NCBI GenBank assembly: GCA_963746775.1
Contig: CAVVCK010000002.1
Location: forward strand, 303,592 to 367,591
DNA length: 64,000 nt
Source of the DNA: an uncultured bacterium
GTDB taxonomy: Bacteria; Patescibacteriota; JABMPQ01; CAVVCK01
Reading direction: 5' to 3'
The notes under the pieces were generated by a model. That model ran no database searches. It was given only the letters and a program-made list of their open reading frames with translations, and was not told the origin of the DNA. The position numbers were made by a program, and so were the translations under genes. This document shows positions 31,344-61,479 of this stretch, one piece after another (position 1 is the stretch's first letter; the number at the start of each line of letters is the position of its first letter).

Positions 31344-31537
31344 ATTAATTCAAAATTTTGATTTTCAAATTTATTTAATTTTATCATAAATAAACTACGT
31401 ATGAAAGATATCACTGTAAGATGACAAATAACCATTTATAAACCAAATACAAATTTCTGTAGTTTTATTATAATTATAATCCATGTATTAAATTCATACG
31501 TGGTAAAATAGATTCTAAACATCCAAGCTTTCATACG

Positions 31538-31577
31538 TAGTAAACAAAAAACGGTAACTAATTAGATTACCGTTTTT
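31538..31577 (-). terminator. rho-independent terminator of the pilin gene
   Basis: Minus strand hairpin AACGGTAATCTAATTAGTTACCGTT followed by TTTTTTGTTT. Confidence 0.55.
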
Positions 31578-31601
31578 ATGTTTTATTATCAAAATTACAG
31601 G

Positions 31602-32021
31602 CTAAGTACAATCTGCCGTAGCACTATCACCACAACCATCTTGATCGCAAGTGAAATAATCACCACCTTCTAAATCTCCAGAAACACAGAAAGTCTGTTG
31701 ATCAGCACTATTATCAGTCCAAGCATAAGCAGCCGCTTGAGGATCAGCAGGAATTGAATCTAAATAAGTAGAAGTAGAACTAGCAATAGATGACCCTGTA
31801 GTGTAAGCACTAGTATCGGGATAAGCAGCATCATCATCATAAGACATTTCCATAGCTAAACCCATTTGTCTAACATCACTTTGTCTGGCTGCATCTCTAG
31901 CTTTTTGTCTAGCACTTCCCAAAGCTACTAATACTAAGGCAGCTAAGATACCAATAATAGCAATTACTACTAAAAGCTCAACTAAAGTAAAACCTTTTTG
32001 TTTCTTAATCATTTGTTTCAC
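31602..32021 (-). CDS. type IV pilin (prepilin N-terminal methylation motif)
   Basis: MKQMIKKQKGFTLVELLVVIAIIGILAALVLVAL is the classic class III signal (G-F-T-L-V-E). Cys-rich C-terminal region. Strong RBS GGGAGGTG. Confidence 0.8.
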   Translation of the reverse strand: MKQMIKKQKGFTLVELLVVIAIIGILAALVLVALGSARQKARDAARQSDVRQMGLAMEMSYDDDAAYPDTSAYTTGSSIASSTSTYLDSIPADPQAAAYAWTDNSADQQTFCVSGDLEGGDYFTCDQDGCGDSATADCT

Positions 32022-32240
32022 CTCCCTTCATATGTTTTTTATTTTAATCTTAAAATTTAGGAATAATCCTAAATTTTATCTGTTTTTCTTTTGTATTATT
32101 TATCAACAGTTAAGGATATTATAGCAGATTATATAAAAAATAACTAATAAATATCCACTTTGTCAGTCTTCGTTCTTTTGCCATCACATTTTTTCAATAT
32201 TTTTCTTTGCGAAATACTCCACCAATGAATATCTTCTTGC

Positions 32241-32921
32241 CTATTCTTTATCAGCGAATATCACTAACCGTTTAGGATAATTTTCGGAAATTTTATTAAA
32301 ATTTCCCGCGCAAGTAATGAGATTAAGGTGTGCTTTTCCGTCGCCTGAATTAAATACACTTGAGGTATTATCATTCTCATTATACATCCGAAATTCTCGC
32401 ACCACAAAAGTAGTAGTCACTCCTTTTTCATCTTCGACATATAAACTATCGCCCTGTCTCAACTTATTTAAATTATCGAACACTGACCCTTCTCCATTCT
32501 TCCAACGACCATAATGTCCAGCGATAACTGCGCTACCAATAGCTCCGGGACGCGGACCAAGCTTAAACCATGCTACATTGTTCGGCTTTTTCGGTACATC
32601 CATTGCTCCATTAGATACAACACCCACATACTCGACAGTAGCATCAACATTTATCCCTGGAATTTTGAGACGCACCGGCAACCCAGAATTTACTTCTTCC
32701 TGTTTTGGGAGAGCAACGCTATTCTCAATAAGCGATGCTGAACTGTTCTGGGTTAACCTTTTGGGAATAAAATATAAAAGAAGCACTAAAAAAAGTACAA
32801 ATCCTATAAGGACAACCACTAATAGTATTCGTTTAGATAAAATTTTCGATTTCATAAATTTTTCAATAGATTCATAACACAAAAGCCCCGACTTGGCGGG
32901 GCCTTTAATATCTCTAGGCAA
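32241..32921 (-). CDS. sortase (class E/F-like transpeptidase)
   Basis: N-terminal TM. Catalytic His in VIAGHYG and Cys in the HLNLITCAG (TLxTC-like) motif. Beta-barrel length is about right. Confidence 0.7.
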   Translation of the reverse strand: MPRDIKGPAKSGLLCYESIEKFMKSKILSKRILLVVVLIGFVLFLVLLLYFIPKRLTQNSSASLIENSVALPKQEEVNSGLPVRLKIPGINVDATVEYVGVVSNGAMDVPKKPNNVAWFKLGPRPGAIGSAVIAGHYGRWKNGEGSVFDNLNKLRQGDSLYVEDEKGVTTTFVVREFRMYNENDNTSSVFNSGDGKAHLNLITCAGNFNKISENYPKRLVIFADKE

Positions 32922-32964
32922 AGCACATTTCCAAGTACATTTATTAATCGTACAAGCGTCTAGG

Positions 32965-34245
32965 CTAAGTCCTACACTTTCTTAAAACTAAGACTATTGA
33001 GGTCGAAACAAACATAATTATACTAACTGGTATAACAATACCAAGCGGATTATTTCTCCCTTCAGGAGAAAGTCCCGTCTCGGGAAAATCAGGAGTAAGT
33101 GTACTGCTAGTATCAGTAGTAGTGCTAGTAGTATCAGTAGTAGTACCAGTAGTGTCGGTAGAGTCGGTAGTATCAGTAGTAGTGCTAGTAGTATCAGTAG
33201 TATCAGTAGTATCAGTAGTGTCAGTAGTGTCGGTAGTAGTATCAGATATATCAGTATTAGTAATTGTGCAAGTTTTATCATCACCAGTTGCAAGCGTTAC
33301 ATTACCACTCGAATCACAATCCCCGCTAATACTTTGTGTATAAGAAGCATTAGCATCTTCGCTTACTACATAGGTACCCGCATTCAACGAATAAGAAGTT
33401 CCGGGCGAAGCAACTCCATCTGCCGGACTTCCTGAAACATCAACACCAGAATGCTTTACATGCATATTGAAGTCAGAAGGAACTGCTGTACCACCATGAC
33501 TATTAACAACACGTTTAATAACATGAAGAGTAGCAGGAATTGGTGAAGCTGCACATGTCGCTACAGTAATATTATTAGTGTCTAAAGTGACTGCAGCATT
33601 TCGTGCTAACACACTACCTTCCACATTGGCACCAGTATTGAGTGTGATAGACGTCAAAGCAAGAATATTCCCCCTGAAAGTGGAATTCGTTCCGAGTGTC
33701 GCAGAACTACCAACTTGCCAAAAGACATGACAAGCCTGAGCACCATTTGCGAGAACCACGTTACTTCCACTCGCTGTGATAAGTGTAGAGGCAGTTTTAA
33801 AAATAAAGACTGCATCAGGATCGCCCTGAGCATCAAGCGTTAGGGTTCCTGTTATCCCAAAATCACCCGCAGCGGAGTTATAGGCACCGGCGGTTTTAGT
33901 TGTTCCACCGAGCTCCGTAGCTACAACAGTAGATGTTTGTCCCGCAGCATCATTATAAGCTGTGGTCAAATCATTTTTAGCCTGCACTGCTGTCGCGTCA
34001 GCTACATGCTGTGTTCCAACAAGTGTGCCTGGCGGGAAACCAGTAACCGCAGAGCCTGGGCTTAAACCCAAATCTCCAGTAACAATACTGGAACCAGTGT
34101 TGGTTACTGTAGAACCAGCCAGAACCGCAAAACTATCGGCTGTACCAAGATTTACCGTAGTCGCAGCTTTGATTATCCAAGCCAGACCAAACGTTATCGT
34201 AACAGCCAATACAGCTACTATTAAAGTTTTATTAAACCTTTTCAT
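32965..34245 (-). CDS. ice-binding-like (DUF3494) surface protein with T/D-repeat stalk and LPXTG-like (FPETG) sorting signal
   Basis: Signal peptide. LGTADSFAVLAGSTVTNTGSSIVTGDLGLSPG is the DUF3494 N-terminal signature. A (TDTTDTT)n stalk is encoded by tandem repeats at about 33102-33250. C-terminal FPETG, then a hydrophobic segment and RKCRT. Confidence 0.65.
   Translation of the reverse strand: MKRFNKTLIVAVLAVTITFGLAWIIKAATTVNLGTADSFAVLAGSTVTNTGSSIVTGDLGLSPGSAVTGFPPGTLVGTQHVADATAVQAKNDLTTAYNDAAGQTSTVVATELGGTTKTAGAYNSAAGDFGITGTLTLDAQGDPDAVFIFKTASTLITASGSNVVLANGAQACHVFWQVGSSATLGTNSTFRGNILALTSITLNTGANVEGSVLARNAAVTLDTNNITVATCAASPIPATLHVIKRVVNSHGGTAVPSDFNMHVKHSGVDVSGSPADGVASPGTSYSLNAGTYVVSEDANASYTQSISGDCDSSGNVTLATGDDKTCTITNTDISDTTTDTTDTTDTTDTTDTTSTTTDTTDSTDTTGTTTDTTSTTTDTSSTLTPDFPETGLSPEGRNNPLGIVIPVSIIMFVSTSIVLVLRKCRT
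33102..33250. repeat. in-frame 6/9-bp tandem repeats encoding a Thr/Asp-rich stalk
   Basis: agtagtatc / agtagtgtc units repeated more than 12 times within the IBP-like CDS. Confidence 0.6.
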
Positions 34246-42161: not shown

Positions 42162-42482
42162 CTAATAGGTTGAATACTCTGCTCCACCACCTAATATTGA
42201 ACTACCCACGCCAAAGACCATCATGATTATCCAGCATAAACAAGCAATTGCAGTCGGTACAATACCTAATATTAAACACATTTTACCAAATTTTTTATTC
42301 TCTTCTCCACCCTTCTTCATGTAAATAATACCCAGGATTATACCTAAAATACTGATGAAAAACGATAATACGTAATAAAGAGATTTTGGCTCTGGAGGCA
42401 TTTCACCACTGTTTGGTGTCTGAGATTGCTGTTTTTCCGGCTGTGGTGTCTCCTTTTGCATTTGTGTGTTTGTTTCTTCCAT
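42162..42482 (-). CDS. small membrane protein, hypothetical
   Basis: 106 aa with a Q/P-rich N-terminus and two TM helices. First gene of the long minus-strand block. Confidence 0.4.
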   Translation of the reverse strand: MEETNTQMQKETPQPEKQQSQTPNSGEMPPEPKSLYYVLSFFISILGIILGIIYMKKGGEENKKFGKMCLILGIVPTAIACLCWIIMMVFGVGSSILGGGAEYSTY

Positions 42483-43796: not shown

Positions 43797-45206
43797 TCAA
43801 TCTAACATTCTGTGTACATAAATAGGGCAATTTCTATTACTATACCAGCTACTTGTTAAATGGCTTTGTAAGCTTGCAGTAATATGGACAGAACTAGATC
43901 TATGTCCATTAGTTGTAATAGCGCCGCCGCCGCCGCCCATCTCAATAACTTCTGCTCCTGAAACACCGGTATAATTAATTGCATGTCCACAATCTCCTCC
44001 AATCCAGATGAAACTACCAGGAGTCATTTCTGCAGTACCATTCTGTAAAGCACTGGCAAATTCTCTAGCGTTATTAAAATAATATGTAGAAGAACTTCTA
44101 TTAGCACTTATCGCTATAACATTACTGGTTACTCCTGCACATTGATATAGTGTACGTGTAAAAGTCAAACAATCTCCACAATAAGTACCACCTAAGCTTT
44201 GTGCCCAAGTTCTATAGTTGCTCATAGCTTGATTCATATCACCACTGACTGGATCAACCCACTGGCTTCTGTAACCTGCACTGGATTGTAATTTTCTACT
44301 TAAATAGGTATCTGAACTACTTGCATTACAAGTTCCTCCGTGCATAGTTCCTCCTCCTACATAAACAGCTCTTCCTGGGAGTATACTTCGCCAACCATTT
44401 ATAATATTATTATAATTTTCTAATTGATTTCCCGAATTACTGTCAGAAGAACAAAAACTCATCATTTGCCTATATAAATCCGAACTATTAGATATACAAC
44501 ACCACTGATTAGTTTGATTATTAGATACATCTGTACCAGTACTAGTATCCGTACTAGTATCCGTACTAGTGTCAGTAGTAGGACTAGTGACATTTACTTG
44601 TTGTTCAATACAACTTCCTCCGCATCTACTATTATTTGTTCCGCCATGAGCCGCACATTCACTTTGCTCGTCAAATAAATCATCTTCATGCAGCCCAGCA
44701 CAAGGGCTAGAAGACACTCCTGAACCACCACCTGAACCACTATCTGAACTACTATCTGAACAAGTACCGTAATTACAAAACTGACCACTCGAACAGTCGC
44801 TATCACTATGGCACCTCACCACATCTGGCAAAGTTACTTCCGGTATATCAAGCTGACATTGCAAAAGAGAAGGCGATATAACTTGAAAAATTAAATAAGA
44901 AAATAAGGCTAAAAAAAATCCAGCCATAGCTCCAGTCATCATCTTCTTAGCATTCCCTAATCTCTCCTCTTGTCCCAGTGATACCATATAATAAAATCCA
45001 CCTAAAACCAACATAATTAGAGTCAAAATGCCAGCAGCCGACATAGAAAAATCAAAAACATCTTTCCAGTATGCACAAGGAGTACTAGTATCAAAACCTA
45101 AAACGCTAGCTCTAACAAAGCCAACCATACTAAATATTGATATAAATACAAATAAAAAAATAAATAATATTCTTTTCGATTTCATTTTAAAAGTATTAAA
45201 TAACAT
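43797..45206 (-). CDS. VirB2/TrbC-like pilin module fused to a large Cys/Ser/Gly-rich ectodomain
   Basis: Signal peptide, then a two-helix hairpin (AAGILTLIMLVLGGFYYMV - short charged loop - AMAGFFLALFSYLIF) in the T4SS-pilin topology. Followed by the motif VRCHSDSDCSSGQFCNYGTCSD and about 330 aa rich in Cys. Confidence 0.5.
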   Translation of the reverse strand: MLFNTFKMKSKRILFIFLFVFISIFSMVGFVRASVLGFDTSTPCAYWKDVFDFSMSAAGILTLIMLVLGGFYYMVSLGQEERLGNAKKMMTGAMAGFFLALFSYLIFQVISPSLLQCQLDIPEVTLPDVVRCHSDSDCSSGQFCNYGTCSDSSSDSGSGGGSGVSSSPCAGLHEDDLFDEQSECAAHGGTNNSRCGGSCIEQQVNVTSPTTDTSTDTSTDTSTGTDVSNNQTNQWCCISNSSDLYRQMMSFCSSDSNSGNQLENYNNIINGWRSILPGRAVYVGGGTMHGGTCNASSSDTYLSRKLQSSAGYRSQWVDPVSGDMNQAMSNYRTWAQSLGGTYCGDCLTFTRTLYQCAGVTSNVIAISANRSSSTYYFNNAREFASALQNGTAEMTPGSFIWIGGDCGHAINYTGVSGAEVIEMGGGGGAITTNGHRSSSVHITASLQSHLTSSWYSNRNCPIYVHRMLD

Positions 45207-45282
45207 ATATCAGATAGCAGGCACCAAGTGTCTAATATTTAATATTCATTATTTTAATATTATACCAAAATCCATAACAAAC

Positions 45283-45310
45283 AAAAAGGGTAATTTAATT
45301 ACCCTTTTTG
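45283..45310 (-). terminator. strong rho-independent terminator between the two pilin-fusion genes
   Basis: AAAAAGGGTAAT ttaa ATTACCCTTTTT; on the minus strand it is followed by GTTTGTT. Confidence 0.6.
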
Positions 45311-45426
45311 TTTCAATATTAAACTATCTTATTTGCTATTAAACATCATAATAGCACTCTAATTCATTTTCCCATATTCTATGTGTTTTTTTAAATTTTA
45401 TTAAAATTATTATAAAATTTAATTAT

Positions 45427-46455
45427 TTATTCCCATCCTTCATCTGTACAATGTCCACCTGTACATGTTCCTGAAAAACACTGCCTATTCCTTTCACATA
45501 AACCATTCACAAGACTTTCTTGACAACGCCATCCAGCCCGAGCACCTGACATATTACAAAAATATGAGTTAAAACAATCATTATCACTATCACAACTACT
45601 ATTAGTACCATTTACACATGTTCTTGGGCTACGATTACTACAAATTTCTGACTGACAATCCTGATTACTAGTACAAGGATTCCCATTAGCTATAGCTCCT
45701 CCACCAGCAGCAGGTTGACATGTTCCCGCTACATCACAATTTCTACTCGTACAGTCTGTATTATTTCCACAAGGAGATCCATTATTATGATCTGTGCATC
45801 GGTGCTGGCTGCCTACGGCCACACAAGCTAATCCTGTATTACACCTAGTATTATCAATACAACCTCTCCCATTTTGACCTAACTGGGTATCTGTACATAT
45901 AGGCTGTCCCCCACCAGTAGGATTAATACATATTGAACCTGCCCCATTCCTATCTTCACAAACCGTTCTATCATGATCAGCAGCATCAGGATCACATGAA
46001 GTTGAGCTTCTGGGATTATCTCTATCAGCACAAGCACCAAAATTACAAATCTGGCCATTTGAACAATCACTATCACTACGACACACTCCTGTATTTAACG
46101 AATCTGTCTCTGGTATTGATAATCTTAATTCTACTAGCCTTGGATCAAGTTGTTTTAATATCATATGTGAAAAAAGCATAATAACCAAACCAGATAGAGC
46201 AGCAAAAATAGCTTGCTTACCTGAAGTTACTGCTTCCTCATTGCCAGCTGAAGTTAAATATCTAAAACCTCCATATACAAGACCACCTAGAGCTAAAAGA
46301 GCCCCTAGACTTATTCCATATCGATAAATAGAATTTATCCAAGCCTGAGGGGAAGAAGTATCAAAACCAAAAAAGCTGGGGATATCAGCTAGAGCAAAAC
46401 TAGGAAATGTTATTAAAATTGTGAAGATAATTAGAAATGTTTTTTTGAAAAACAT
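45427..46455 (-). CDS. VirB2/TrbC-like pilin module fused to a Cys-rich ectodomain (paralog of 43797..45206)
   Basis: Signal peptide (cleavage after FALA). Two-helix hairpin GISLGALLALGGLVYGGFRYL - loop - AIFAALSGLVIMLFSHMIL. Motif CRSDSDCSNGQICNFGACAD, then about 220 aa with more than 35 Cys. Confidence 0.5.
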   Translation of the reverse strand: MFFKKTFLIIFTILITFPSFALADIPSFFGFDTSSPQAWINSIYRYGISLGALLALGGLVYGGFRYLTSAGNEEAVTSGKQAIFAALSGLVIMLFSHMILKQLDPRLVELRLSIPETDSLNTGVCRSDSDCSNGQICNFGACADRDNPRSSTSCDPDAADHDRTVCEDRNGAGSICINPTGGGQPICTDTQLGQNGRGCIDNTRCNTGLACVAVGSQHRCTDHNNGSPCGNNTDCTSRNCDVAGTCQPAAGGGAIANGNPCTSNQDCQSEICSNRSPRTCVNGTNSSCDSDNDCFNSYFCNMSGARAGWRCQESLVNGLCERNRQCFSGTCTGGHCTDEGWE

Positions 46456-46516: not shown

Positions 46517-47767
46517 CTATGGCATAATCAATCCATAGAATTTTCCATCGTGTTTTCTAGTAAAATACATACTCTTCTGATCTCCAGAAATTAAAGGCTG
46601 ATAGACATCATAATCTTTATTAAATTGAGAAAAATCAGCTAATTTTTCCTGTTCACCACTATCTACGTTTATTTTGTAAAATGAATCTTTGGAAACAAAT
46701 TTAGTATTATAATAATCATCTGGCTGAACAAAAAAGTTGCTATAATTTTCAGGCACTCCGCAAAAAACACTAACACTATCTTGGGCCCAAGCACATTTTT
46801 CTACTAAAGTAGCAATTTGTAATTTTTTTGGCTCTATTTTTTTATTTACTTCTGCCTCCCAAAGTACAGGAAATCTAGCATTTTTAGTCTCATTATCATT
46901 ATATATTACTTTTTTTCCATCTGGAGAAAATAAAGGATTAAGTCCCCATCTCTTAGATAAAAAAGTATAATGATCTATTCCTTCTCCTACATTGTATATT
47001 TCTAGTTGTCCTTCTTTGAAGGCTGTTGCAGTATTATAAACAGCTAAATCATTATTAGAAAACCATTTAGTCTCAATTTCTTCTTGGTCTATCTCTTTAA
47101 TTTTCCTCCAAGAAGATAAATCTGGTTTAGCTACTGATAGATTATACTCATCATTAGCCAAATCATGAAATACATAAGCAATATTTTCACCATTATATGA
47201 CATGGTAACATCTTGATATCTATCTTCATATTTAATATCCTCTTGCATATTTAAATTAAAGAAGTGATAATTTTTTGTCATTCCTTTATCTTGAGAAAAT
47301 GTTAAAACAATCTTTTCTCGATCAGGCGACCAGCTCACATTATATAAATTTTCAAATTTAGCATTTGTTAAAACCTGTTCCCCAGTTCCATCAATGTTTG
47401 CTTGGTAAAATTCTTTACCATTAGGATCAAAATATATAAACTTACTTTTATCAGCTGAAAAAACAACAAATTTTACTTCTTTGTCAATAATCTTTTTAAT
47501 TTGCAAAGCTTTAACTTCTTCTGTTGACTGATTATTGTTTAATTTATTAGCCTCTTCCTGCCTTAATTGCTCTTCTTTTTGTGCTAAGGTTAATCCATTC
47601 TTTCTTTCTTCATCTGTTAACTGTAAATTAGACCGCTGATCTTCTGGCAGAATAACTTCTTCTGGTTTTTGCTCTTTATTAGAAGTTGAAGTTAAATAGT
47701 AAAAAACACCTAATCCTATTAATATGATAATTAATATAGCAGCTAATATTATGTACTTTTTTTTCAT
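46517..47767 (-). CDS. membrane-anchored TolB-like PD40 beta-propeller protein
   Basis: N-terminal TM. PD40 repeats (VSWSPDREKIVLTF, FSPDGKKVIYND). Confidence 0.55.
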   Translation of the reverse strand: MKKKYIILAAILIIILIGLGVFYYLTSTSNKEQKPEEVILPEDQRSNLQLTDEERKNGLTLAQKEEQLRQEEANKLNNNQSTEEVKALQIKKIIDKEVKFVVFSADKSKFIYFDPNGKEFYQANIDGTGEQVLTNAKFENLYNVSWSPDREKIVLTFSQDKGMTKNYHFFNLNMQEDIKYEDRYQDVTMSYNGENIAYVFHDLANDEYNLSVAKPDLSSWRKIKEIDQEEIETKWFSNNDLAVYNTATAFKEGQLEIYNVGEGIDHYTFLSKRWGLNPLFSPDGKKVIYNDNETKNARFPVLWEAEVNKKIEPKKLQIATLVEKCAWAQDSVSVFCGVPENYSNFFVQPDDYYNTKFVSKDSFYKINVDSGEQEKLADFSQFNKDYDVYQPLISGDQKSMYFTRKHDGKFYGLIMP

Positions 47768-47833: not shown

Positions 47834-50527
47834 TTATTTTCTCCCTGAAGCTTTATACATAAATCCTATTATAAACAATGTAACTAACCCCGTTAAACCA
47901 AATACAAAAAATAAGTTAAACACATTTTTATAATATTGCGGAATGAATTTACTTAGAGCTCCAGCCACACCTAAATTCTCTCGATCTACTTCTGGATTAG
48001 ATAAATTGATTTCCCTTGTCTTTGAAGCTGTTTCTGTAAGAGGATTGCCATTGTTTTCCACATAATTAATTTTACTCTCTACTTCTAAAGTAATGATTTC
48101 TTTATTAAGCCCATTCGGTTGCCCATTTATATCTACACCAGGTTTAAATGTATAAGAAGATTCTGTTGTATTCCAATCTCCTCTCCTAGTATCAACTGCC
48201 TCTCCATTCCTTTTCCATGTATAAGTAAATTCTCTAGATGGTCTCCAATAATTAAGACTGGCATGAATAGTTACATTGCTATCTCCGGCATAATAAGTTG
48301 ATTGGTTACTATCCTCGGGAGAGGTTCCTATTTCAACTCCCTCGGGATCATCGAACTCAATACTAGGAGGTTTAATTTCAAAATTCCTATCATTTCGTGC
48401 AATAATATCTTTTTTATCATCTAAAACTTCCAAAGTCACAGCCTCACTGCTAGTATTAGCCAGACTATTAGCTTCTTCCCCTGTGGGTTCCCCAATACTA
48501 CGTGGATCATCTCTCAGAATAAAATAAGCTGTCTCGAAATTAGGACCCTTACCACTTTGCAATTGTTGTTCTTTTCCTTTAAAATTCCACTTAAAATTAA
48601 AGTTCTGTACTGCTAACTCAAAGGGGTCATCACAATTTTCAATACCATATTTAGTTTCACACTCCTTTTTAACTTTTTCATCTTCAACCTTATATTTATT
48701 TTTACATTCATCCCCAAATCCATCTTTAATCTTATTAACTGTAGCCTTTACTAAATCTCCAGTACGAAAACCTTGATCTTCTGTTATCTTACCCTTAAAA
48801 GCATCCTGATCCAAAATATAACTCTTTTTCAAAATATAATTTTCACTATTCGGATCATCAAAATTTATATCATTAAAATCTATTCCTTTCCGCTCATTAA
48901 ATTTTTTTACTTCCTCATTTTTTAAATCAACATTACCAATAACATCCATATCTAAACTAGAATCAAACCCGATAGGAATTTCAAATTCTTGAAAATTCAA
49001 TCGATTGGTGTTTTTTTCTAATATTTCCAGCCCTATCGTATCTCTATCACAAGCTTGTTTTTCAGTATTATATTGATAAATTTTCTTACCGTAACCTTCC
49101 TCTACTACATCTTCATCTTTATGCCCATTTAAAAACCATTTAAATTCCAAATCAAGCCCGGCATTTTCTTCTAATTTTGAGGTTTCAGCAATAACTGTAA
49201 TTGGTATTGGATCACCCGGTATAGGAGGCGCTGGATTATAACTCCAACCTACTTTAAGTGCAAGCCCTAAGCCAACTTCAATTTCATTTTCTCCTTTTGG
49301 AGTCGCCTCAAATCCACAGCTTGTATCTTCTGGAGCAGGATAAGTAAATAAGGTATATTTATCTCCTGAATTCTCGTTTCTATATTTATCATTTACTCCA
49401 AAAACTCTCAGCATTACGTTGTATTTTTCTCCATATTCTTTTTTAACTATAAGATGAACATTATCTTGTTTTATCCCAATATAATCTAGACCATCTTCAA
49501 CTCCATCATTGTCTGTATCCGAAGTTGTAGGATTTGTACCTTCTATATATTCTCTTAATATATCAAAGGATTTTTGACCTGGATTTACTTCTTGACCAAC
49601 AGAACTTCTTAAATATGGTACACCAAGCATCCAGGGTGCACTATAATTATTACCTTCATCTTTAAAAAAATACTCCCAAGCATCTCCGTCCGGATCATTG
49701 ACAAATACACTCGGATCATCTGGTGAAACAATTTTATCTGGTTGCACTAATGGCAATAAGGCTTCATCATTATCGGGCATATAAAAAAATCCTTTCTCCG
49801 TACTGCCATCTTCATTTTCTGTTGTGTAATTAATTAGCTTGCCTTTAAAATATCTTATTTCCCAATTATCATCCAAACCATCTCCATCAGTATCATTACC
49901 TATTGTAGGCTGCCTGGTTACATAAAATTCAGGCGGAGCAGAATTCTTAACATAATTTTCATAAGATATATTTCCTATCCTTCTAAATGGTAATGTTTCA
50001 TTATCACCTTCTTGAAATATTGTAATTCTGTCTCCAAGTATAATATGTCCAGTACCAATATATTTAACTAAATTTTCTGCATTACAATATAATTTGTTAT
50101 CATTTCTTAGACAGTATGCTTCATCATCACCAATTTTATACATTTTTTGCGAAGTAAAACCTCCTGCTAACGCTGCTCCAGGATTACAAATTTTATCAAG
50201 ATTATCTTTTCCAATATCCCCATATTCACTTTGCAGATAATAACCATCCACCTCATTGCCAGCAATTTTATCTGAAGAACCTGCATTTAATGTATTTAAA
50301 GGAACTTTATCAATACACCACATATAATTCATTCTATCCTGATCTTCTCCGTCAGCACTATAACCTTCTGATTGCGCCTGAAGAGTAATATTAGCTCCTG
50401 GCTGTATTATACCTGGAATTACACCAAGATTTACTCGAGGACAATCCGCAGCCAAAACATTCATGGAAAAAAGCAACATAAATAACATTGTGCCTATTCC
50501 TATACTTATTTTATTTATTTTATGCAT
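47834..50527 (-). CDS. large (897 aa) surface protein with signal peptide, TSP3-like Ca-binding repeats and C-terminal TM anchor
   Basis: Signal MHKINKISIGIGTMLFMLLFSMNVLA. DTDGDGLDDNWEIRYF and DTDNDGVEDGLDY repeats. C-terminal LFFVFGLTGLVTLFIIGFMY followed by KASGRK. Confidence 0.5.
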   Translation of the reverse strand: MHKINKISIGIGTMLFMLLFSMNVLAADCPRVNLGVIPGIIQPGANITLQAQSEGYSADGEDQDRMNYMWCIDKVPLNTLNAGSSDKIAGNEVDGYYLQSEYGDIGKDNLDKICNPGAALAGGFTSQKMYKIGDDEAYCLRNDNKLYCNAENLVKYIGTGHIILGDRITIFQEGDNETLPFRRIGNISYENYVKNSAPPEFYVTRQPTIGNDTDGDGLDDNWEIRYFKGKLINYTTENEDGSTEKGFFYMPDNDEALLPLVQPDKIVSPDDPSVFVNDPDGDAWEYFFKDEGNNYSAPWMLGVPYLRSSVGQEVNPGQKSFDILREYIEGTNPTTSDTDNDGVEDGLDYIGIKQDNVHLIVKKEYGEKYNVMLRVFGVNDKYRNENSGDKYTLFTYPAPEDTSCGFEATPKGENEIEVGLGLALKVGWSYNPAPPIPGDPIPITVIAETSKLEENAGLDLEFKWFLNGHKDEDVVEEGYGKKIYQYNTEKQACDRDTIGLEILEKNTNRLNFQEFEIPIGFDSSLDMDVIGNVDLKNEEVKKFNERKGIDFNDINFDDPNSENYILKKSYILDQDAFKGKITEDQGFRTGDLVKATVNKIKDGFGDECKNKYKVEDEKVKKECETKYGIENCDDPFELAVQNFNFKWNFKGKEQQLQSGKGPNFETAYFILRDDPRSIGEPTGEEANSLANTSSEAVTLEVLDDKKDIIARNDRNFEIKPPSIEFDDPEGVEIGTSPEDSNQSTYYAGDSNVTIHASLNYWRPSREFTYTWKRNGEAVDTRRGDWNTTESSYTFKPGVDINGQPNGLNKEIITLEVESKINYVENNGNPLTETASKTREINLSNPEVDRENLGVAGALSKFIPQYYKNVFNLFFVFGLTGLVTLFIIGFMYKASGRK

Positions 50528-50582
50528 AATTTAGGATAAATTATTAATATGAATTTAGTGGTTATTTTTTAATTTCTGATTA

Positions 50583-51659
50583 TTAGCTACCTATTACATG
50601 ATTTAATATTTCTATTACAAACGAAGAAGAACCCATAACAAATGTCTTAAGAAAAGCAATCACTAAACTGAATACATATGCATCTACATACATAAATACT
50701 ATTAAAATTATAATAGGGATTGCTTGAACGATTGTTCCGGGTCCTACTAAAAATCCAAAACCAATCCAATCCAACTTACTCATTCTAGGAATATATTTAC
50801 TTTTTATAAGATGAGCTCCAATAATTTGAACCCACCAAATAATAATTGTTACAATTAAACTTATAAATATTGTTTCCGCAGCTGCTCCTAAAGTTGCTAC
50901 TTTTGTTACATTAAAAACTGTTTTAACTGTTTTAAGTGTTTTAGCTAATTTTGTCGCTTTGGCTGCTTCGGCGCCTGTTTTGGCAACCTTGGCTGCTTCG
51001 ACGCCTGTTTTGGCAACCTTGGCTGCTTCGGCGCCTTTTTTACTTTCTTTATATTTCTCTAATCCTTTTTCAATTTTTTTCCTTACTTCTTTTCTGGTTT
51101 TATCAAGATCTAATTGTGTTTGATTTTCCTCTCCAGGACCAACATAATCATTCATACCAGCTAATCTAGATATTTGATCATCTCCTATTGCCTTCAACTC
51201 ATCTGGCTGATCTTCGCCTACCATGTTTAAAAATGGTGATTCTAACTTTTCAACATCCGATCTAATTTTTTTTATTTTTTGTTTTATTCCCTTAGGCTTT
51301 GCAGGACTATAAAACTCACCTGGGGATCTGTATGGATGTTTACCAACAGCAGCAACACCTCCGTCCAGCTCATACCTATTTTCATCTCGCAATTTATACG
51401 CTAAATTATTTTTTGGCAAACTAGATTTATTTACCCAGGCAGTATAGGCATTACTTATTCTTTCTTTAGTAGCAAAGATTCCTTTTTTATTTTTTAAAGT
51501 TCTCTGATTTTTTAAATTCACTATTTTTTCTATTTCTCTTTCTTCCTCCTTTTCGATCAATTTTTCCTTTTCTAAAACTTTTCTTTTGTATTTTAAAAGC
51601 ATTATCTGATAAAAATCTTCCCGAGCAGATTCTTCAACTGGCTGTAAATATTCATTCAT
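50583..51659 (-). CDS. membrane protein with coiled-coil N-domain, internal K/A repeat and 3 C-terminal TM helices (T4SS-operon component, function unknown)
   Basis: KGAEAAKVAKTGVEAAKVAKTGAEAAK repeat encoded by 30-bp tandem DNA repeats at about 50958-51035. C-terminal TM helices. Confidence 0.45.
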   Translation of the reverse strand: MNEYLQPVEESAREDFYQIMLLKYKRKVLEKEKLIEKEEEREIEKIVNLKNQRTLKNKKGIFATKERISNAYTAWVNKSSLPKNNLAYKLRDENRYELDGGVAAVGKHPYRSPGEFYSPAKPKGIKQKIKKIRSDVEKLESPFLNMVGEDQPDELKAIGDDQISRLAGMNDYVGPGEENQTQLDLDKTRKEVRKKIEKGLEKYKESKKGAEAAKVAKTGVEAAKVAKTGAEAAKATKLAKTLKTVKTVFNVTKVATLGAAAETIFISLIVTIIIWWVQIIGAHLIKSKYIPRMSKLDWIGFGFLVGPGTIVQAIPIIILIVFMYVDAYVFSLVIAFLKTFVMGSSSFVIEILNHVIGS

Positions 51660-51725
51660 CTTTAGTATACATTAAAACAATAAAACATGAAAACAAACGC
51701 ATTTAATATCTTTTTTTTAATAATT

Positions 51726-52352
51726 TCAATCCTGCCAATATATACCACTTAATTTCCAATCTTCTCCTGATTTTTCAAATGTTGTTAATATTATTTTATA
51801 GCTAACTTTAGGCGTATTACTACTAGCTGTTATTTCTTCCCTTTTTACTGTTACTAATATTTTACTTTTTGAACTATCTTGACTAATAAAGACTGATGAT
51901 AGGGCTGAAGTTGTCATACCATAAAAAGGAGTACTACTATCTATTGGCATCTTACTTTTATCATCAATCCATTTTACTAATTTGTCATTAGAATACTGCT
52001 TTAAGTCTTTTAAATTTTTATAAGCTTCTTTGTCTTTATTAGTAAAAGTCCCAAATATTTCAGCTAACTTTTCAGCTTTTTCTAAAAATAATGTATCTTC
52101 ATTGTTTTGTATAGAATTATCTTGGTTTCCAGTATTATCAGCATTACTATCAGTTATTTGACTATTCTCTGTTGCTACAGTGTTGTCTGGCTCAATTTGA
52201 TTATAGGTTATTTGCTCTGTTGAATCAACGCTAGTTTGTGAATCACTACTACCAGTTGAGTCTTCTTGCTTCTTACAACCAAAAGCAGTCAATAATACTA
52301 AAATCATCAAACTGAAAATAATTGTTATAGAATATTTTAAGTATTTAAACAT
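51726..52352 (-). CDS. lipoprotein with C-terminal NTF2-like domain (possible VirB8/PrgL-like)
   Basis: Signal with a lipobox-like LLTAFGC. Disordered S/T/N/D-rich linker. About 110-aa C-terminal alpha+beta domain ending in KLSGIYWQD. The VirB8 assignment is speculative. Confidence 0.35.
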   Translation of the reverse strand: MFKYLKYSITIIFSLMILVLLTAFGCKKQEDSTGSSDSQTSVDSTEQITYNQIEPDNTVATENSQITDSNADNTGNQDNSIQNNEDTLFLEKAEKLAEIFGTFTNKDKEAYKNLKDLKQYSNDKLVKWIDDKSKMPIDSSTPFYGMTTSALSSVFISQDSSKSKILVTVKREEITASSNTPKVSYKIILTTFEKSGEDWKLSGIYWQD

Positions 52353-52440
52353 ATTAAAACCATGTTAATATAATTAGAACTTCTAACATACAATGCTAAA
52401 TAATTATTTCCTGGCATTATATACTAGACTTTGGTAATTT

Positions 52441-54336
52441 CTAGGTTGCTATAGCCCTTCTATCATTTTCAGGTGATCTTGATTCTTCTTCTAGTTCCTT
52501 TTTTGATTGTTCGATTTCTAATAATTGTTTAGGGTCAGTAGTAATTAATTGATCTTCCATATAAGAAGCAACAATTTTAATAGCTACATGCTTTGGACCA
52601 GCAAAAAATATTCCTTCACCAACATCTGATTCTAGTAGTAAAAATTTTTCCTCTTCTGTTAAATAAAATGTTTTCTTTAATAGGTCAATGTTGGCTGGAG
52701 ATTGTTTTAATAAAATCATCATGGAAGAATTAGTAACTACCGCTTTCCCATGATCAGAATTTAAAAAATCTGATACATCTTGACTGATAGTGGTCATACC
52801 TAGATAATATTTTCTGCCACGTTTCGCCATGGCGTACATAAATCTAGCCGAATCTTCATACTGCATCATCCACCAAGCCTCATCAATAACTAGTACCCGT
52901 CTTTTCAATTCAGCCCTGACTACATTCCAAATATAATTAAGAACAACATACATAGCTATTGGCCTTAATTCTTCTTCAACATCTCGAATACTAAATACTA
53001 CGAACTTTGCTTTCATTTCAACGTTTGTGGGTTGATTAAATATCCCAGAAAATGTTCCTTCGGTATATTTTTTAATCCTGGATACTAAACTTTCTGCCCC
53101 CTCCATTGTTTCTAATATTTCCTGAAAATCCTGCATTGTTGGTGAGGTAATTTTATTTAAATCTGATTCTGCTGTAATATCTTTCTTGGCATAAGTTTCC
53201 AGCAAAGCATTGTCAACTAAAGCATCTTCTTCCTTGGTCATACGTCCCAACATCAATCGCATTAATCCTTTTAAATTAATTACCGCCGATCTAATAATAT
53301 CTTCAGCTGACATACCTGTAATTTTGGGGGGTAAATCAAAAGGGTTAAGTCTATAATCAGAATCCAGTGATATCCGCAAAAAAGTACCCCCAACTGCATC
53401 ACATAAATGTTTATATTCATTTTCTGGATCTACTACAATCACATCAGCCCCAAACATTAAGCTTCGTAATATTTCTAGCTTCACCGCATAACTCTTACCT
53501 GCACCAGGTATAGCAAAAACTACGCTATTAGCGTTCGGCAATGTAAATCGATCAAAAATTATTAAACTATTGTTATGACGATTAATACCATATAATATCC
53601 CTTCATCCGATGTAAGTTCAGAAGAAACAAAAGGGAAAACAGTTGAAAGTGGTGAAGTATTCATACTATTAACCACTCCTATGTCATCATTACCAAGAGG
53701 CATAGTAGAATTGAATCCTTCTTCCATTTGATAAATTGTTCTTTTAGAATAAATTAATTTATGCCCTAACAAGCCTTCTAGCTCTTTTGTCTTTTCTTCT
53801 AATTCCTTTTTTGTTTCTGTATATAATGTTAGATAAAGACCAAAATGGAAGAATCTTTCTGTCCCCTGAACCAACCTATCACGAAGTTCTTCTACGTCTC
53901 CTAAGGCAGTTTCTAACATAGGATCTCTAACCATTCCCTTTTCCTCCTGAGCTGAAATTGTTGATCTAATTTGACCTACTTTATTTTTTAAAGTTTTTAA
54001 AATCTTTTCTGAACTCACCGGAGTAATATAGAAAGCAATGTCCAATTCTTCATTTAAATTAACAATAGGAGAAAGCCAACCTACATTTAAATAACGGGGG
54101 TAAGTAAATACAAATAATGTCCTAACAAATTTATTGTTAAGCTTTAAATGATCAGGATTAATCTGCATCGCTGATGGAGCTATAATATCTTTGATTGACA
54201 CTAAACCCATCTTATATATTTCTTCTGCTTTCAGAATATCCTCTTTTTCTTTTATTGATAAATTATCAAAATTCTGCTTGCCGTAGGGCAGCTGTTCATC
54301 TTGTACTTCATCTTGATTAGTAAGTGATCTTGGCAT
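52441..54336 (-). CDS. VirB4/TrbE/CagE-family T4SS ATPase
   Basis: Walker A FAIPGAGKSYAVKLE. Walker B/D-E VLVIDEAWWMM. Conserved VirB4 blocks (VVDPENEY, RKYYLGMTTISQ). Confidence 0.8.
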   Translation of the reverse strand: MPRSLTNQDEVQDEQLPYGKQNFDNLSIKEKEDILKAEEIYKMGLVSIKDIIAPSAMQINPDHLKLNNKFVRTLFVFTYPRYLNVGWLSPIVNLNEELDIAFYITPVSSEKILKTLKNKVGQIRSTISAQEEKGMVRDPMLETALGDVEELRDRLVQGTERFFHFGLYLTLYTETKKELEEKTKELEGLLGHKLIYSKRTIYQMEEGFNSTMPLGNDDIGVVNSMNTSPLSTVFPFVSSELTSDEGILYGINRHNNSLIIFDRFTLPNANSVVFAIPGAGKSYAVKLEILRSLMFGADVIVVDPENEYKHLCDAVGGTFLRISLDSDYRLNPFDLPPKITGMSAEDIIRSAVINLKGLMRLMLGRMTKEEDALVDNALLETYAKKDITAESDLNKITSPTMQDFQEILETMEGAESLVSRIKKYTEGTFSGIFNQPTNVEMKAKFVVFSIRDVEEELRPIAMYVVLNYIWNVVRAELKRRVLVIDEAWWMMQYEDSARFMYAMAKRGRKYYLGMTTISQDVSDFLNSDHGKAVVTNSSMMILLKQSPANIDLLKKTFYLTEEEKFLLLESDVGEGIFFAGPKHVAIKIVASYMEDQLITTDPKQLLEIEQSKKELEEESRSPENDRRAIAT

Positions 54337-54500
54337 TTCTTTAAAACGTTAAAACTTTAAAACATAAAAACAAAAATTTTCTAATATCTTGTGCTTTATT
54401 TTCAATGAAACATCTAATTTTAAAAACCACAAATTTCTAATTAGTCATTTTAAAATTTTATTAGAAATTAGAAATTAGTAATTGGTAATTAGAAATTATT

Positions 54501-55268
54501 CTAATATCCTCCCCGCTCCACCTTTAGTTCATCTAAATCCACCAAAACTTGATTAGTAGACACTTCTGGATTATACCAATTATATAATAATTCAACTATT
54601 TCCTGAGTATCTAGGGCTGCTGATCTAATACCCATTCCAGATAAACCACCAACAACATGATTTACTCTAAGATGTAATTCTTCCTTACTTTTATCAAATG
54701 CTTCAGTTTTCATTTTCACTTCTGTAGCCGGTTGCAAAATACTTTTTATTTTATCTATAGGACCGCTCATACTCTGCCCTGGCGAAGGAGAATAAGGAAC
54801 AACTACATAAAAATTATTAGTTGTAATATTAGCTAACTCCACTAGAGACAAAATATATTCGCCATACCCAGCAATTTGCATTCTTAACAACTCATTCTCT
54901 TGAATCCTACCTGCTTCTTTTATTTTTTCGGCATATTTAAGAATATTTAGTTTTCTAGTCTGAGCAACAATTTGTATAGGAAATTCTAAAGAATTCAGAA
55001 AATCCTGAAAAGCATATATCTTACCTATCTGTTCATCTTCAGACATTAAAGAAAAATTAATACTAGACGCTAGGATTATAGAACGAAATCCCCCGCTTTT
55101 TAAAATAGCCGCACCATCTCTAATTCCTTCAACATTCAAAAATTTTTGGGTAGATACAGATTTTTTATTAGTTACTTTTTTAGAAAATAATGTTTCGAAT
55201 ATATTTCCTTTTTTGTTGGATTTATCAACTTGCTGATTTTTGTCTTTCAATTTATTTAGATTAAACAC
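54501..55268 (-). CDS. hypothetical protein in the T4SS-like operon
   Basis: 255 aa, soluble, with no nucleotide-binding motif. Lies between the PrgI-like and VirB4 genes. Confidence 0.4.
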   Translation of the reverse strand: MFNLNKLKDKNQQVDKSNKKGNIFETLFSKKVTNKKSVSTQKFLNVEGIRDGAAILKSGGFRSIILASSINFSLMSEDEQIGKIYAFQDFLNSLEFPIQIVAQTRKLNILKYAEKIKEAGRIQENELLRMQIAGYGEYILSLVELANITTNNFYVVVPYSPSPGQSMSGPIDKIKSILQPATEVKMKTEAFDKSKEELHLRVNHVVGGLSGMGIRSAALDTQEIVELLYNWYNPEVSTNQVLVDLDELKVERGGY

Positions 55269-55413
55269 AATAATTAATGATTATGTGATTCTTAAGCATC
55301 CTCACTAGTTCTGTACTACTAATCACATGCTCTTTAAAACAATACGTAAGTATGGAAATTATTAAATATTAACAATCTTTTAACTTTCTTTTTATATTAA
55401 TCTTTTTTATTTT

Positions 55414-55863
55414 TTACTTTGGTATTTCTTCAGTGCTTTTTATCACTCCACCCATATCTAGTATTTGAGAAAGTTCTTGAATTCTACTCCTATTAAAACT
55501 TTTATCTCCAATCTCTTGTGTTTGCGCTTTAGAAATTATTCTCCCCCTTTTATTACTGTCACTTATATTAATATGAGATGTTTTTACATCACGTAACCAA
55601 AGCCGTAGTTTAGGAGAGGTGAAAAACTTTACAGCCGCCTTTAAATAAATTTCAAAAGGCCGGCCATTAATCTTTATAAAAGCAAAAGGAATAACTACTG
55701 CGCCAGCCAAAACTGCTAATAGAATAAATAAGGTAAGATCAGCTAGTGCCCAAACAATAAGTAAAAAAACTCCTCCAACTACTAAATATAAAAATTGCTT
55801 GGTAGTAAGCGGACCAATTACTTTGTCTTCAACTTCAATAAATTGAGGAACGGCGTATTGCAT
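55414..55863 (-). CDS. PrgI/VirB3-like small 2-TM protein
   Basis: MQYAVPQFIEVEDKVIGPLTTKQFLYLVVGGVFLLIVWAL...FILLAVLAGAVVIPFAFIKINGRPFE has the PrgI-family N-terminus and topology. Upstream of VirB4 as in Gram-positive T4SS. Confidence 0.4.
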   Translation of the reverse strand: MQYAVPQFIEVEDKVIGPLTTKQFLYLVVGGVFLLIVWALADLTLFILLAVLAGAVVIPFAFIKINGRPFEIYLKAAVKFFTSPKLRLWLRDVKTSHINISDSNKRGRIISKAQTQEIGDKSFNRSRIQELSQILDMGGVIKSTEEIPK

Positions 55864-55942
55864 AAATTTAATTATTGAAACATATTGAAACTCATAGAAA
55901 TAGATAGAAATACATTGCTGTTAATCATCTTTTAATTTGTTT

Positions 55943-55995
55943 CCAATGCATTTCTATATATTTCAACTGTATCTCAATTATATTTCTATTTATAC
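55943..55995. repeat. left copy of about 55-bp imperfect direct repeat flanking the four-helix-bundle gene
   Basis: ccaatgcatttctatatatttcaactgtatctcaattatatttctatttatac versus the right copy at 56445-56497 (about 80% identity). Confidence 0.55.
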
Positions 55996-56366
55996 TTCGA
56001 TCTATACGTTGAACTAATAAAATTATTTAGTTTTACTGACAATTCTTTAGTAACTTTCTTGAATTCTATATATTTATCTTCTTTTAAAACTTCCCTTTCA
56101 AATAACAATTCCAACCAATAATCGCTGCGTTCACTTAATGAAGCTCTGCTGTTATAATAAAATTTTATTTTATCCAAATAGTGATATCTGCTATAGCCTT
56201 CAGTAATATTAGCTCCAACTGAATCTGTAGATCTAATAAATTGATCGCCAATCACTTTTTTATTTTGCCAACCTAAACTACTATATATTTCCCAACTTAT
56301 TTTAGATAATTGTCGAGCTAACTTATAAACATCTAAATCTTGTAAAAGAATGTATTTATTATTCAT
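55986..56366 (-). CDS. four-helix-bundle protein (23S rRNA intervening-sequence / Avd-like family)
   Basis: DLDVYKLARQLSKISWEIYSSLGWQNKKVIGDQFIRSTDSVGANITEGYSRYHYLDKIKFYYNSRASLSERSDYWLELL matches the PF05635-type pattern (L.VyqkA..L...iy.....fP......l..Ql.Rsa.Si..NIAEG..R....e...F...A.GS..E....L.l). Confidence 0.65.
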   Translation of the reverse strand: MNNKYILLQDLDVYKLARQLSKISWEIYSSLGWQNKKVIGDQFIRSTDSVGANITEGYSRYHYLDKIKFYYNSRASLSERSDYWLELLFEREVLKEDKYIEFKKVTKELSVKLNNFISSTYRSKYK

Positions 56367-56444
56367 AAAAGTGGTAACCTCCTATTACTCACTTAATAAT
56401 TTATAATTAATATTATCAAATCTCTATTTATTTCTACTATATCT

Positions 56445-56497
56445 CAATTGCATTTCCATGTATTTCAACTATATTCCAACTGTATTTCTATTTATCT
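56445..56497. repeat. right copy of about 55-bp direct repeat, embedded in a degenerate roughly 21-bp periodic array
   Basis: caattgcatttccatgtatttcaactatattccaactgtatttctatttatctc. Confidence 0.55.
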
Positions 56498-56526
56498 CAA
56501 TCATATTTCTATTGTATTTCAAAAAT

Positions 56527-57831
56527 TTAAATAGATTTTAATACCTTCCTCATCTCCTCAAATTCATCCTTACTCAAATACTTCTCCCCTCTTCCTTTCC
56601 TTTCTTCGGCAATTTTACCTATATCTTTTTTGGAATCCAAACTTTCCTTGCCTTGCAATAAATATATTTTATAAAGTTCACTTCTTCTTAAATAATATTT
56701 TACAGCTTCTTTGCTTTCAGATGATTCAACTAATAATTTTTTAATTTTTGCAGACATAAATGCGCCAGCAGCTTCAGCCTCCTTGCCATAACTTCTAAAA
56801 TCTTCTATGTTTAATTTTTCTAAAGATTGAACTGTGGCTAATTTTGCTAAAGAAATTTTAGGAATAGGATTCAAATTAGCAAACTTTTTTTCTTTAATTA
56901 AATCATAATCACTTCTTGGTTTAGATAGTGTTTGCGGAACATTTTTTTCATCATTTCGTAACAAACTTCCCTTCACTCCTAGCAAATTACTATCTTCTCT
57001 CATCTCTCCTCTAATTATTTTCTTTTTTTCTTCTCTAGCTTTCTTTCTCTTTTCTATTTCTTTTTTGTATTCTTCTGGATCAAGAGGCATGTATTTTTTA
57101 TCTAAACCAGTACCCACTTCTCTTATACCAAATACAGAAAGCGGATAAGTAGCAATGCCATTAGGATGGGCCATATCTAATTTTAGTTTTTCATATAATC
57201 TTAATATTTTTTTTAATATCATCTTATCTTCAAAACTCAATATTCTAACATTTTTACTTTTAAATAAATAATTAGAGATATCTAATTCTCCGTGTTCACC
57301 TGCACCAATTAGATTATCATAATCAGCCAGCCAATTACGTACAGATGGCTCTTTAGGTTTATTATTAGATCCAATTATTATCTGACTATCCCCTAATATT
57401 TCTATATTTTCTTTTAGCGCTTCTCTAATATTTTTTAAAAAAGGATCTCTTTTCCATATATTAGAGATACCAAAAACTTTAGCTCTTAGTTTATTTTCCA
57501 AATTAATTTCCCATTTAATACTAGTTTTAATTATTACTAAAAAGTGTTTTCTAAATAAATCTATCGCTTTTTCATCGCTTAATAATGATAACTGTACAAA
57601 ACCAATTTTTACTAAAAATTCTAAGTACTTTTTAGCTAAATCTTGATTAAGCCCTGACCCAAATTTTCGTAAGGACTCTTCTAAATTTAATCTTAAAATA
57701 TTATATTCCACTACTTCCTCGCCTGTTATCCCATTATCATACCGCAAAAGATAATCAACTTTTTTAGTGATTTCCCTTAATACTTCTTGATCTTCTAATT
57801 GTCCTTTTGTAAAAGCTTGTATTTTTTTCAT
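56527..57831 (-). CDS. hypothetical cytoplasmic protein in the T4SS-like operon
   Basis: 434 aa with no TM, K/E-rich central region and no recognised motif. Confidence 0.45.
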   Translation of the reverse strand: MKKIQAFTKGQLEDQEVLREITKKVDYLLRYDNGITGEEVVEYNILRLNLEESLRKFGSGLNQDLAKKYLEFLVKIGFVQLSLLSDEKAIDLFRKHFLVIIKTSIKWEINLENKLRAKVFGISNIWKRDPFLKNIREALKENIEILGDSQIIIGSNNKPKEPSVRNWLADYDNLIGAGEHGELDISNYLFKSKNVRILSFEDKMILKKILRLYEKLKLDMAHPNGIATYPLSVFGIREVGTGLDKKYMPLDPEEYKKEIEKRKKAREEKKKIIRGEMREDSNLLGVKGSLLRNDEKNVPQTLSKPRSDYDLIKEKKFANLNPIPKISLAKLATVQSLEKLNIEDFRSYGKEAEAAGAFMSAKIKKLLVESSESKEAVKYYLRRSELYKIYLLQGKESLDSKKDIGKIAEERKGRGEKYLSKDEFEEMRKVLKSI

Positions 57832-57942
57832 TCTTTATTTTTTATCCAGATAAAAACATAAAATTTCTACTGCATATTTAAAACTAGCCTATATTCCGCC
57901 TCTCACAACATTATCCATGTTATTTTCTTATTCACTGCCACT

Positions 57943-61436: not shown

Positions 61437-61479
61437 CTTTATTAAATTATATTTTTTATTTTAAATAAATTATAAAATC

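Follow-up and report, generated by a model that had tools for sequence, protein, structure and literature searches.

VirB2-like pilin modules fused to a predicted cysteine hydrolase and to a cysteine-rich ectodomain in a Patescibacteria type IV secretion operon

VirB2-like pilins have been published as components of type IV secretion system (T4SS) operons in Patescibacteria, singly and in arrays (PMC10633639, PMC12102498, PMC12857230), with pilins and pilin arrays reported in 1,948 assemblies (PMC12102498), and they are, like the T4SS itself, essential in Southlakia epibionticum, the only Patescibacteria epibiont that has been tested genetically (PMC10633639). The function of the Patescibacteria T4SS and of these pilins has nevertheless been called completely unknown (PMC11665869), pilus polymerisation has not yet been shown for any of them (PMC12857230), and most genomes with VirB2 homologues are without a recognised VirB1 (PMC12102498). 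Since such pilins are published, the mere occurrence of a pilin within a monoderm T4SS would be nothing new, and the view that a Gram-positive-type system normally lacks VirB2, on which a first-pass annotation of the present locus relied, is outdated for Patescibacteria (PMC12102498, PMC10633639). Here we describe two neighbouring minus-strand genes, A and B, from an uncultured Patescibacteriota bacterium (assembly GCA_963746775.1, contig CAVVCK010000002.1, positions 303,592 to 367,591; this stretch of 64,000 nucleotides is called the window hereafter), whose products carry a VirB2-like pilin module extended by a large C-terminal domain, which in B is a predicted enzyme.

In several respects A and B resemble the published VirB2-like pilins of Patescibacteria, such as those of the S. 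epibionticum array. They start with a signal peptide and a PF18895 two-helix hairpin, their genes adjoin those for VirB6, PrgI (VirB3-like) and VirB4 in a monoderm-type operon on the chromosome and, as in the reported arrays, they are divergent paralogues lying close together (38% identity, E 2e-30 over the first ~144 residues, with no relatedness beyond). What sets them apart is their size, as the PF18895 model spans 71 positions and classical VirB2/TrbC pilins comprise about 100 amino acids (aa), whereas A (342 aa) and B (469 aa) add C-terminal domains of 220-350 aa and hence exceed the about 100-150 aa of small single-domain pilins. B also differs from the known T4SS hydrolases, namely VirB1 (SLT), PrgK of pCF10, TraG of pIP501 (SLT + CHAP) and the Tn916 Orf14/CwlT-type NlpC/P60 enzymes, in that its anchor is a VirB2-like hairpin and not a plain signal peptide, transmembrane segment or lipobox; its enzyme domain is in addition too divergent for the Pfam family NLPC_P60. 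From our point of view, it is the combination of a VirB2-like pilin with a predicted T4SS wall hydrolase that appears to be new. A literature search of incomplete coverage returned no description of pilin-enzyme fusions, while domain-architecture databases may list such combinations.

The reading of both N-termini as a signal peptide followed by a T4SS pilin hairpin, which the first-pass annotation had proposed from the letters alone, withstood profile searches. PF18895 (T4SS_pilin) scores 30.8 bits on residues 34-101 of A (cut-off 26.6) and 24.6 bits, just under the cut-off, on B, while orthologues of B reach 29-35 bits (P0013 29.5, P0005 34.5, P0010 34.3) and all 20 related long open reading frames (ORFs) that were put through Pfam match the family; the TrbC/VirB2 family PF04956 gives weak matches in some B orthologues and some relatives. 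Both proteins show the superfamily layout of a signal peptide and two hydrophobic helices with a short charged loop between them. In A, the hydropathy profile has a hydrophobic window at residues 1-11 that corresponds to the signal peptide, then a Gly-rich and moderately hydrophobic helix 1 and a strongly hydrophobic helix 2; in B, it has the signal peptide and two more hydrophobic segments. The AlphaFold model of B contains two long helices (43-75 and 80-110), and a match to a solved conjugative pilin was obtained. Judged by sequence, the N-terminal module of A and B is thus a VirB2-like T4SS pilin module, and we regard both proteins as extended members of the Patescibacteria VirB2-like pilin family. 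In the A-type proteins this module has a mean identity of 76% to 12 homologues, as opposed to 36% for the ectodomain, and its loop and helices hold >40 invariant positions; such a difference in conservation speaks for a role of the hairpin beyond that of an anchor.

The part of B that follows had been taken for a Cys-rich adhesin. This part of the earlier proposal did not stand, as the C-terminal domain (residues 240-469) is modelled with a predicted local distance difference test score of 93.3 as a papain-like alpha+beta fold of the NlpC/P60 type, to which an extra helical subdomain of ~110 residues is added. Foldseek returned weak matches, the sole one of appreciable probability being the NlpC/P60 endopeptidase 3m1u_A (E 0.016). 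The figures listed for the domain are 8.9 for Endolysin Lys2972, 8.8 for MepS, 8.7 for BCE_2878 (23% identity) and also for CwlO, 8.2 for RipB, 7.4 for the Tn916-like conjugative cell wall hydrolases 4hpe_A and 9ubf_B (21% identity) and 7.2 for LytE. The candidate catalytic residues Cys346, His408 and Glu422 are invariant in 24/24 family sequences and occupy, in the secondary structure of the model, the places expected for a papain-like triad: the Cys starts a helix (107-117 in the 240-469 fragment), and the His and Glu lie on two strands in succession (169-176 and 179-184). The number of Cys residues in B, 19, is odd, consistent with one free catalytic thiol. On the basis of the model and the conserved triad we conclude that the domain is a divergent, predicted cysteine hydrolase of the NlpC/P60/CHAP fold, and that B belongs to the NlpC/P60 class by predicted fold and triad, though not by a sequence match to the Pfam family. 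For B, the adhesin is hence replaced by a fusion with a predicted wall hydrolase.

The family defined by this domain is divergent and very rare, with 19 members found by an exhaustive search of 1.84 billion representative proteins with a hidden Markov model (HMM). A word-indexed search gave 15 homologues of B, 10 of which share the C-terminal 230 residues with the motifs YCGDCLTF(S/T)R and CGHAINYTG..E(I/V)IEMGG, and the same type of search with the alignment of the domain gave one protein; a scan of GTDB genomes with the motifs of the domain found no relative. Nearly all close homologues carry the pilin module, and among the distant relatives 11/16 carry PF18895 and 1/16 has a weak NLPC_P60 match; sub-threshold NLPC_P60 matches occur in 3/24 family members, with a best E of 0.0028. 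Matches of the domain to vicilins were dismissed as a chance resemblance to a GDV..GH motif.

How the domain is combined with the pilin module became apparent from 80 loci around close VirB4 relatives, whose ORFs were scanned for the A/B pilin module with a local HMM. The best VirB4 relatives (<=74% identity) all come from Patescibacteria metagenome-assembled genomes (Parcubacteria group, Falkow-, Doudna- and Kerfeldbacteria), which places the window in a genome of this phylum. Of the loci, 17 contain pilin-module ORFs, 24 in total (median length 383 aa). The gene order is conserved and runs from a TSP3-repeat gene over genes for an uncharacterised 339-aa protein, VirB6, a 434-aa protein, PrgI, a TraC-like protein, VirB4, a 208-aa membrane protein and an 897-aa protein to the A-type pilin, a propeller, the B-type pilin and a second propeller. 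The section from the 897-aa gene to the B-type pilin recurs in L002, L007, L008, L009 and L010, with the second propeller-like gene next in L002 and L009, and L013 keeps the order without the 897-aa gene.

At the B-type position, the conserved N-terminal part is followed by unrelated C-terminal domains even among close relatives. According to Pfam, these are an SLT domain in P0013, Amidase_2 in L013 (E 2e-15) and Peptidase_C39_2 in L007 (E 2.7e-13), while L008, L010 and L012 have SLT after and a GDSL/SGNH hydrolase before the hairpin; a more distant pilin fusion in L067 has a sub-threshold VanY match. The C-terminal domain of P0011/12/14, for which neither Pfam nor a PDB sequence search gave a match, carries SHWHG..D and HxH motifs and may be similar to LAS/M15 zinc peptidases, which we note as a lead only. 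P0011-P0014 share 76-87% identity with B in the pilin module and are unrelated to it past a conserved WCC junction, whereas P0005-P0010 are 47-48% identical to B in the NlpC/P60-like domain and only 27-30% in the pilin module. Because the similarities of the two parts vary in opposite directions in these groups, the enzyme behaves as a shuffled cassette. An alignment of 13 B-type proteins with differing C-terminal domains defines what precedes the cassette, namely the signal peptide, the pilin hairpin, a neck with four Cys residues, an acidic or Ser/Thr-rich linker and a (K/R)WCC junction.

Two further domain arrangements were seen. The three-part GDSL/SGNH-pilin-SLT proteins (L010:19014-20954, L008:13447-15357, L012:5901-7412) would place two different enzymes outside on one pilin module, and one could speculate that the SGNH domain could act as a peptidoglycan de-O-acetylase. 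Many of the NlpC/P60-like members (P0005-P0010, P0038, P0041, P0042) have an extra Cys-rich domain after the signal peptide and ahead of the hairpin, with C.HCWC.RPD..CEHH as an example motif; as this domain precedes the hairpin, both hairpin ends can apparently bear extracellular domains.

The statement that both proteins continue into domains with dozens of Cys residues holds for A, in which all 28 Cys lie after residue 124 in a pattern that is kept in the 12 homologues, but not for B, with 17 of its 19 Cys after the hairpin. The Cys motif that had been described as shared is indeed present in both proteins (CRSDSDCSNGQICNFGAC in A and CHSDSDCSSGQFCNYGTC in B, which also has the TDTSTDTSTDTS stretch), but it is not a feature of the B family, since the alignment shows this 18-aa module neither in P0001 nor in the other B orthologues. 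As the two copies are identical at 43/54 nucleotides, and the adjacent pilin modules only at 40-50%, the sequences suggest that, within this genome, the module recently passed from A to B by transfer or gene conversion. The ectodomain of A gave no significant match in Pfam, NCBIfam or PDB profile searches; Dickkopf_N (14.8-15.1 bits) and the Myxococcales Cys-rich repeat TIGR04201 (15.7 bits) stay below their cut-offs of 25, and the PDB profile matches to Draxin and Dkk4 (E 0.2-1.3) are not significant. It is most likely a non-enzymatic, fast-evolving domain that serves as a spacer or binding surface.

Taken together, B is probably a VirB1-like wall hydrolase that belongs to the T4SS and is anchored by its pilin module, with A as its non-enzymatic, Cys-rich partner. 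The proposal draws on the homology of the pilin module, the membership in the operon, the predicted fold of the B domain, the conservation of its triad and the swapping of domains at this position. Each protein would be exported by Sec and lose its signal peptide, and the hairpin would then insert into the membrane so that the short charged loop faces the cytoplasm and both ends face outwards, which is the known topology of VirB2 and TraA. With both hairpin ends outside, the C-terminal domain would be positioned at or on the T4SS, on the outer side of the cell membrane, a location that fits disulfide-rich C-terminal domains. There, the domain of B would cut the peptide stems of peptidoglycan and thereby open the wall for the T4SS, delivered or anchored by a pilin module in place of a plain membrane anchor, and A could act as a stalk or binding partner with seven disulfide-knotted four-Cys modules. 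The SLT and Amidase_2 domains in the orthologous position indirectly support peptidoglycan as the presumed substrate. If true, such fusions would explain the missing VirB1 in Patescibacteria, and they offer a concrete idea, with named catalytic residues, of how ultrasmall cells may breach their own or a host envelope.

Several results weigh against this proposal. The B domain has no sequence match in Pfam (even at E <= 10), NCBIfam or the PDB, so that the cut-offs of PF00877 and PF05257 are not reached, and hhalign of the domain with an approximate sequence of Escherichia coli MepS gave a probability of only 1%; in this low-probability alignment, GDC stands opposite IDC and GH opposite RH, in register. 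Furthermore, the local HMM scan found no third and no small canonical pilin gene in the window, so that either a filament would consist of bulky subunits or the major pilin would be encoded elsewhere in the genome. This last result would also suit the original suggestion of pilin-adhesin fusions, in which A would be the major structural subunit, present in abundance in a T4SS pilus, with Cys-rich ectodomains that serve in attachment. The pilin module is real, gene A has its own terminator, which by itself does not establish abundance, and the ectodomain of A is rich in Cys, non-enzymatic and quick to evolve, traits that are frequent in surfaces in contact with a host. It is, however, difficult to reconcile adhesins with a predicted hydrolase fold and conserved triad in B or with the peptidoglycan enzymes in the orthologous position; A matches no adhesin family at any threshold and, judging from the geometry of F- and T-pili, a domain of 220-350 aa on each VirB2-type subunit would be crowded, so that we consider this suggestion quite unlikely. 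Bulky domains are found on the minor pilins TcpB/CofB and GspK, where the combination of a polymerisation module and a bulky domain confines such proteins to the tip of the pilus or to the start of assembly. As these proteins of type IV pili and type II secretion belong to an unrelated superfamily (type IV prepilins with an N-terminal alpha-1 helix and PilD processing), the resemblance is one of design only.

It is also possible, if somewhat doubtful, that the hairpin is a pilin-derived membrane anchor and nothing else, so that A and B stay tethered to the membrane, never join a pilus, and B opens the cell's own wall in the manner of PrgK, TraG(pIP501) and CwlT. For a passive anchor, it would be unusual that the pilin module is the best conserved part of the A-type proteins, and the switching of the enzyme type between close relatives would be harder to understand if the substrate were the own, conserved wall, although VirB1-type enzymes vary among conjugative systems, too. 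The same variability leans towards a host-directed role, with the same caveat, and the B-type proteins could be seen as polymorphic effectors, with pilin and neck as the delivery handle for an exchangeable hydrolase that attacks the wall of a host or competitor at the contact site. That close relatives share the N-terminal part but continue into unrelated C-terminal domains is what would be expected of such effectors. However, polymorphic toxins such as the Tae amidases of type VI secretion come with cognate immunity genes, while the neighbours of B are propeller proteins and no immunity-like small variable gene was noticed beside it, although no systematic examination for one was made; B would further differ in having a T4SS pilin as its delivery module. 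We regard effectors as somewhat unlikely, but this idea overlaps with that of a pilin-anchored wall hydrolase and does not exclude it. One could finally speculate that the T4SS builds a structure resembling a pilus, with interchangeable enzymes for cutting peptidoglycan (NlpC/P60-like, SLT, amidase, metallopeptidase) and the Cys-rich partner on its subunits or at its tip, and that this structure bores through the host wall as a conduit for feeding or transfer, with the cassette matched to the chemistry of the host wall and thus helping to set the host range. In this full form, in which the fusions would polymerise into or cap a pilus, the idea appears rather improbable to us.

Table 1. Features of the gene pair and its surroundings (positions in the window)
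Feature	Position	Strand	Remarks
Gene A	45427-46455	-	342 aa
A, signal peptide, residues 1-23, MFFKKTFLIIFTILITFPSFALA	46387-46455	-	A-x-A type site; putative cleavage, read from the sequence
A, VirB2-like pilin module, residues 24-115	46111-46386	-	FGFDTSSP motif, helix 1, charged loop TSAGNEEAVTSGKQ, helix 2
A, ectodomain, residues 116-342	45427-46110	-	28 Cys as seven 4-Cys modules
A, copy of the 18-aa 4-Cys module	46030-46083	-	also in B
Terminator-like hairpin 3' of gene A	45279-45313	-	16 perfect pairs, then U tract
Promoter-like region 5' of gene B	45251-45280	-	consensus match only
Gene B	43797-45206	-	469 aa
B, signal peptide, residues 1-33	45108-45206	-	VRA at end; putative cleavage site
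B, VirB2-like pilin module, residues 34-126	44829-45107	-	Cys44 and Cys117 conserved
B, 18-aa 4-Cys module CHSDSDCSSGQFCNYGTC	44760-44813	-	also in A
B-type neck	44496-44714	-	4-Cys mini-domain PCAG..ED.LF..Q.EC...C.G.C, TDTS-rich linker, (K/R)WCC junction
B, C-terminal domain, residues 240-469	43800-44489	-	divergent NlpC/P60/CHAP-like papain fold (predicted)
B, candidate catalytic Cys346	44169-44171	-	invariance and modelled fold
B, candidate catalytic His408	43983-43985	-	invariance and modelled fold
B, candidate catalytic Glu422	43941-43943	-	invariance and modelled fold
TolB/PD40-like beta-propeller, N-terminally anchored	46517-47767	-	PD40 E 7.8e-7, TolB TIGR02800 E 2e-9
Second N-terminally anchored, weakly propeller-like protein, 391 aa	42572-43747	-	downstream of B; weak PD40 match
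Remaining T4SS operon	47834-62589	-	Pfam matches; same gene order in related Patescibacteria loci
Operon protein, 339 aa	60417-61436	-	no Pfam match
Operon protein, 434 aa	56527-57831	-	no Pfam match
23S rRNA intervening-sequence protein	55986-56366	-	PF05635, E 2.7e-22
Operon protein, 358 aa	50583-51659	-	no Pfam match
Operon protein, 897 aa	47834-50527	-	no Pfam match
106-aa ORF	42162-42482	-	rejected as pilin
Prepilin peptidase (A24), sortase and ice-binding-like/adhesive-domain genes	30549-34245	-	about 10 kb from the T4SS operon

The positions of both ORFs and the sequences quoted for them were as first described (Table 1), and so was the terminator of gene A, a 16-bp hairpin followed by a U tract. 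Its RNA folds with a free energy of -18.7 kcal/mol (z -5.0 against shuffled sequences), and 1/200 shuffles folds as well. Between this terminator and gene B lies a promoter-like extended -10 element (TGGTATAAT, TGnTATAAT-like, at 45259-45267), and the promoter scan upstream of B also gave TTGTTA-18-TAAAAT. The window has a GC content of ~31% and the stretch in question is AT-rich, with 36 promoter-like sites observed against 33 expected from shuffles and hence no enrichment.

The placement of the pair within a T4SS, as originally assigned, is borne out by Pfam matches to VirB6, PrgI, TraC-like and VirB4 proteins upstream on the same strand, in a monoderm-type operon. The remaining operon encodes, in this order, a TSP3-repeat protein, an uncharacterised protein of 339 aa, a VirB6/TrbL-like protein (740 aa), an uncharacterised protein of 434 aa, a 23S rRNA intervening-sequence protein, a PrgI/VirB3-like protein, a TraC-like protein (255 aa), VirB4 (631 aa), a membrane protein (208 aa) and further uncharacterised proteins of 358 and 897 aa. 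The 897-, 434- and 339-aa proteins have homologues at equivalent positions in related loci. Between the genes of the 434-aa protein and PrgI lies the 23S rRNA intervening-sequence gene; in the related loci listed, none was seen there.

In all related operons that are well resolved (L002, L007-L010, L013), pilin-fusion genes occur in alternation with genes for N-terminally anchored TolB/PD40-like propellers, which may act as scaffold, inhibitor or partner. L002, whose B-type gene carries another enzyme type, has a counterpart of the weakly propeller-like 391-aa protein downstream of that gene, and L009 and L013 carry a gene like that of the 416-aa propeller there instead. The 106-aa ORF that comes next in the window was considered as a pilin and rejected, as it encodes a hairpin of two transmembrane segments with a Q/P-rich N-terminus and without a signal peptide; L002 has a 108-aa gene at the matching position. 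Lastly, the prepilin peptidase, sortase and ice-binding-like genes on the same strand may represent a separate surface-structure locus.

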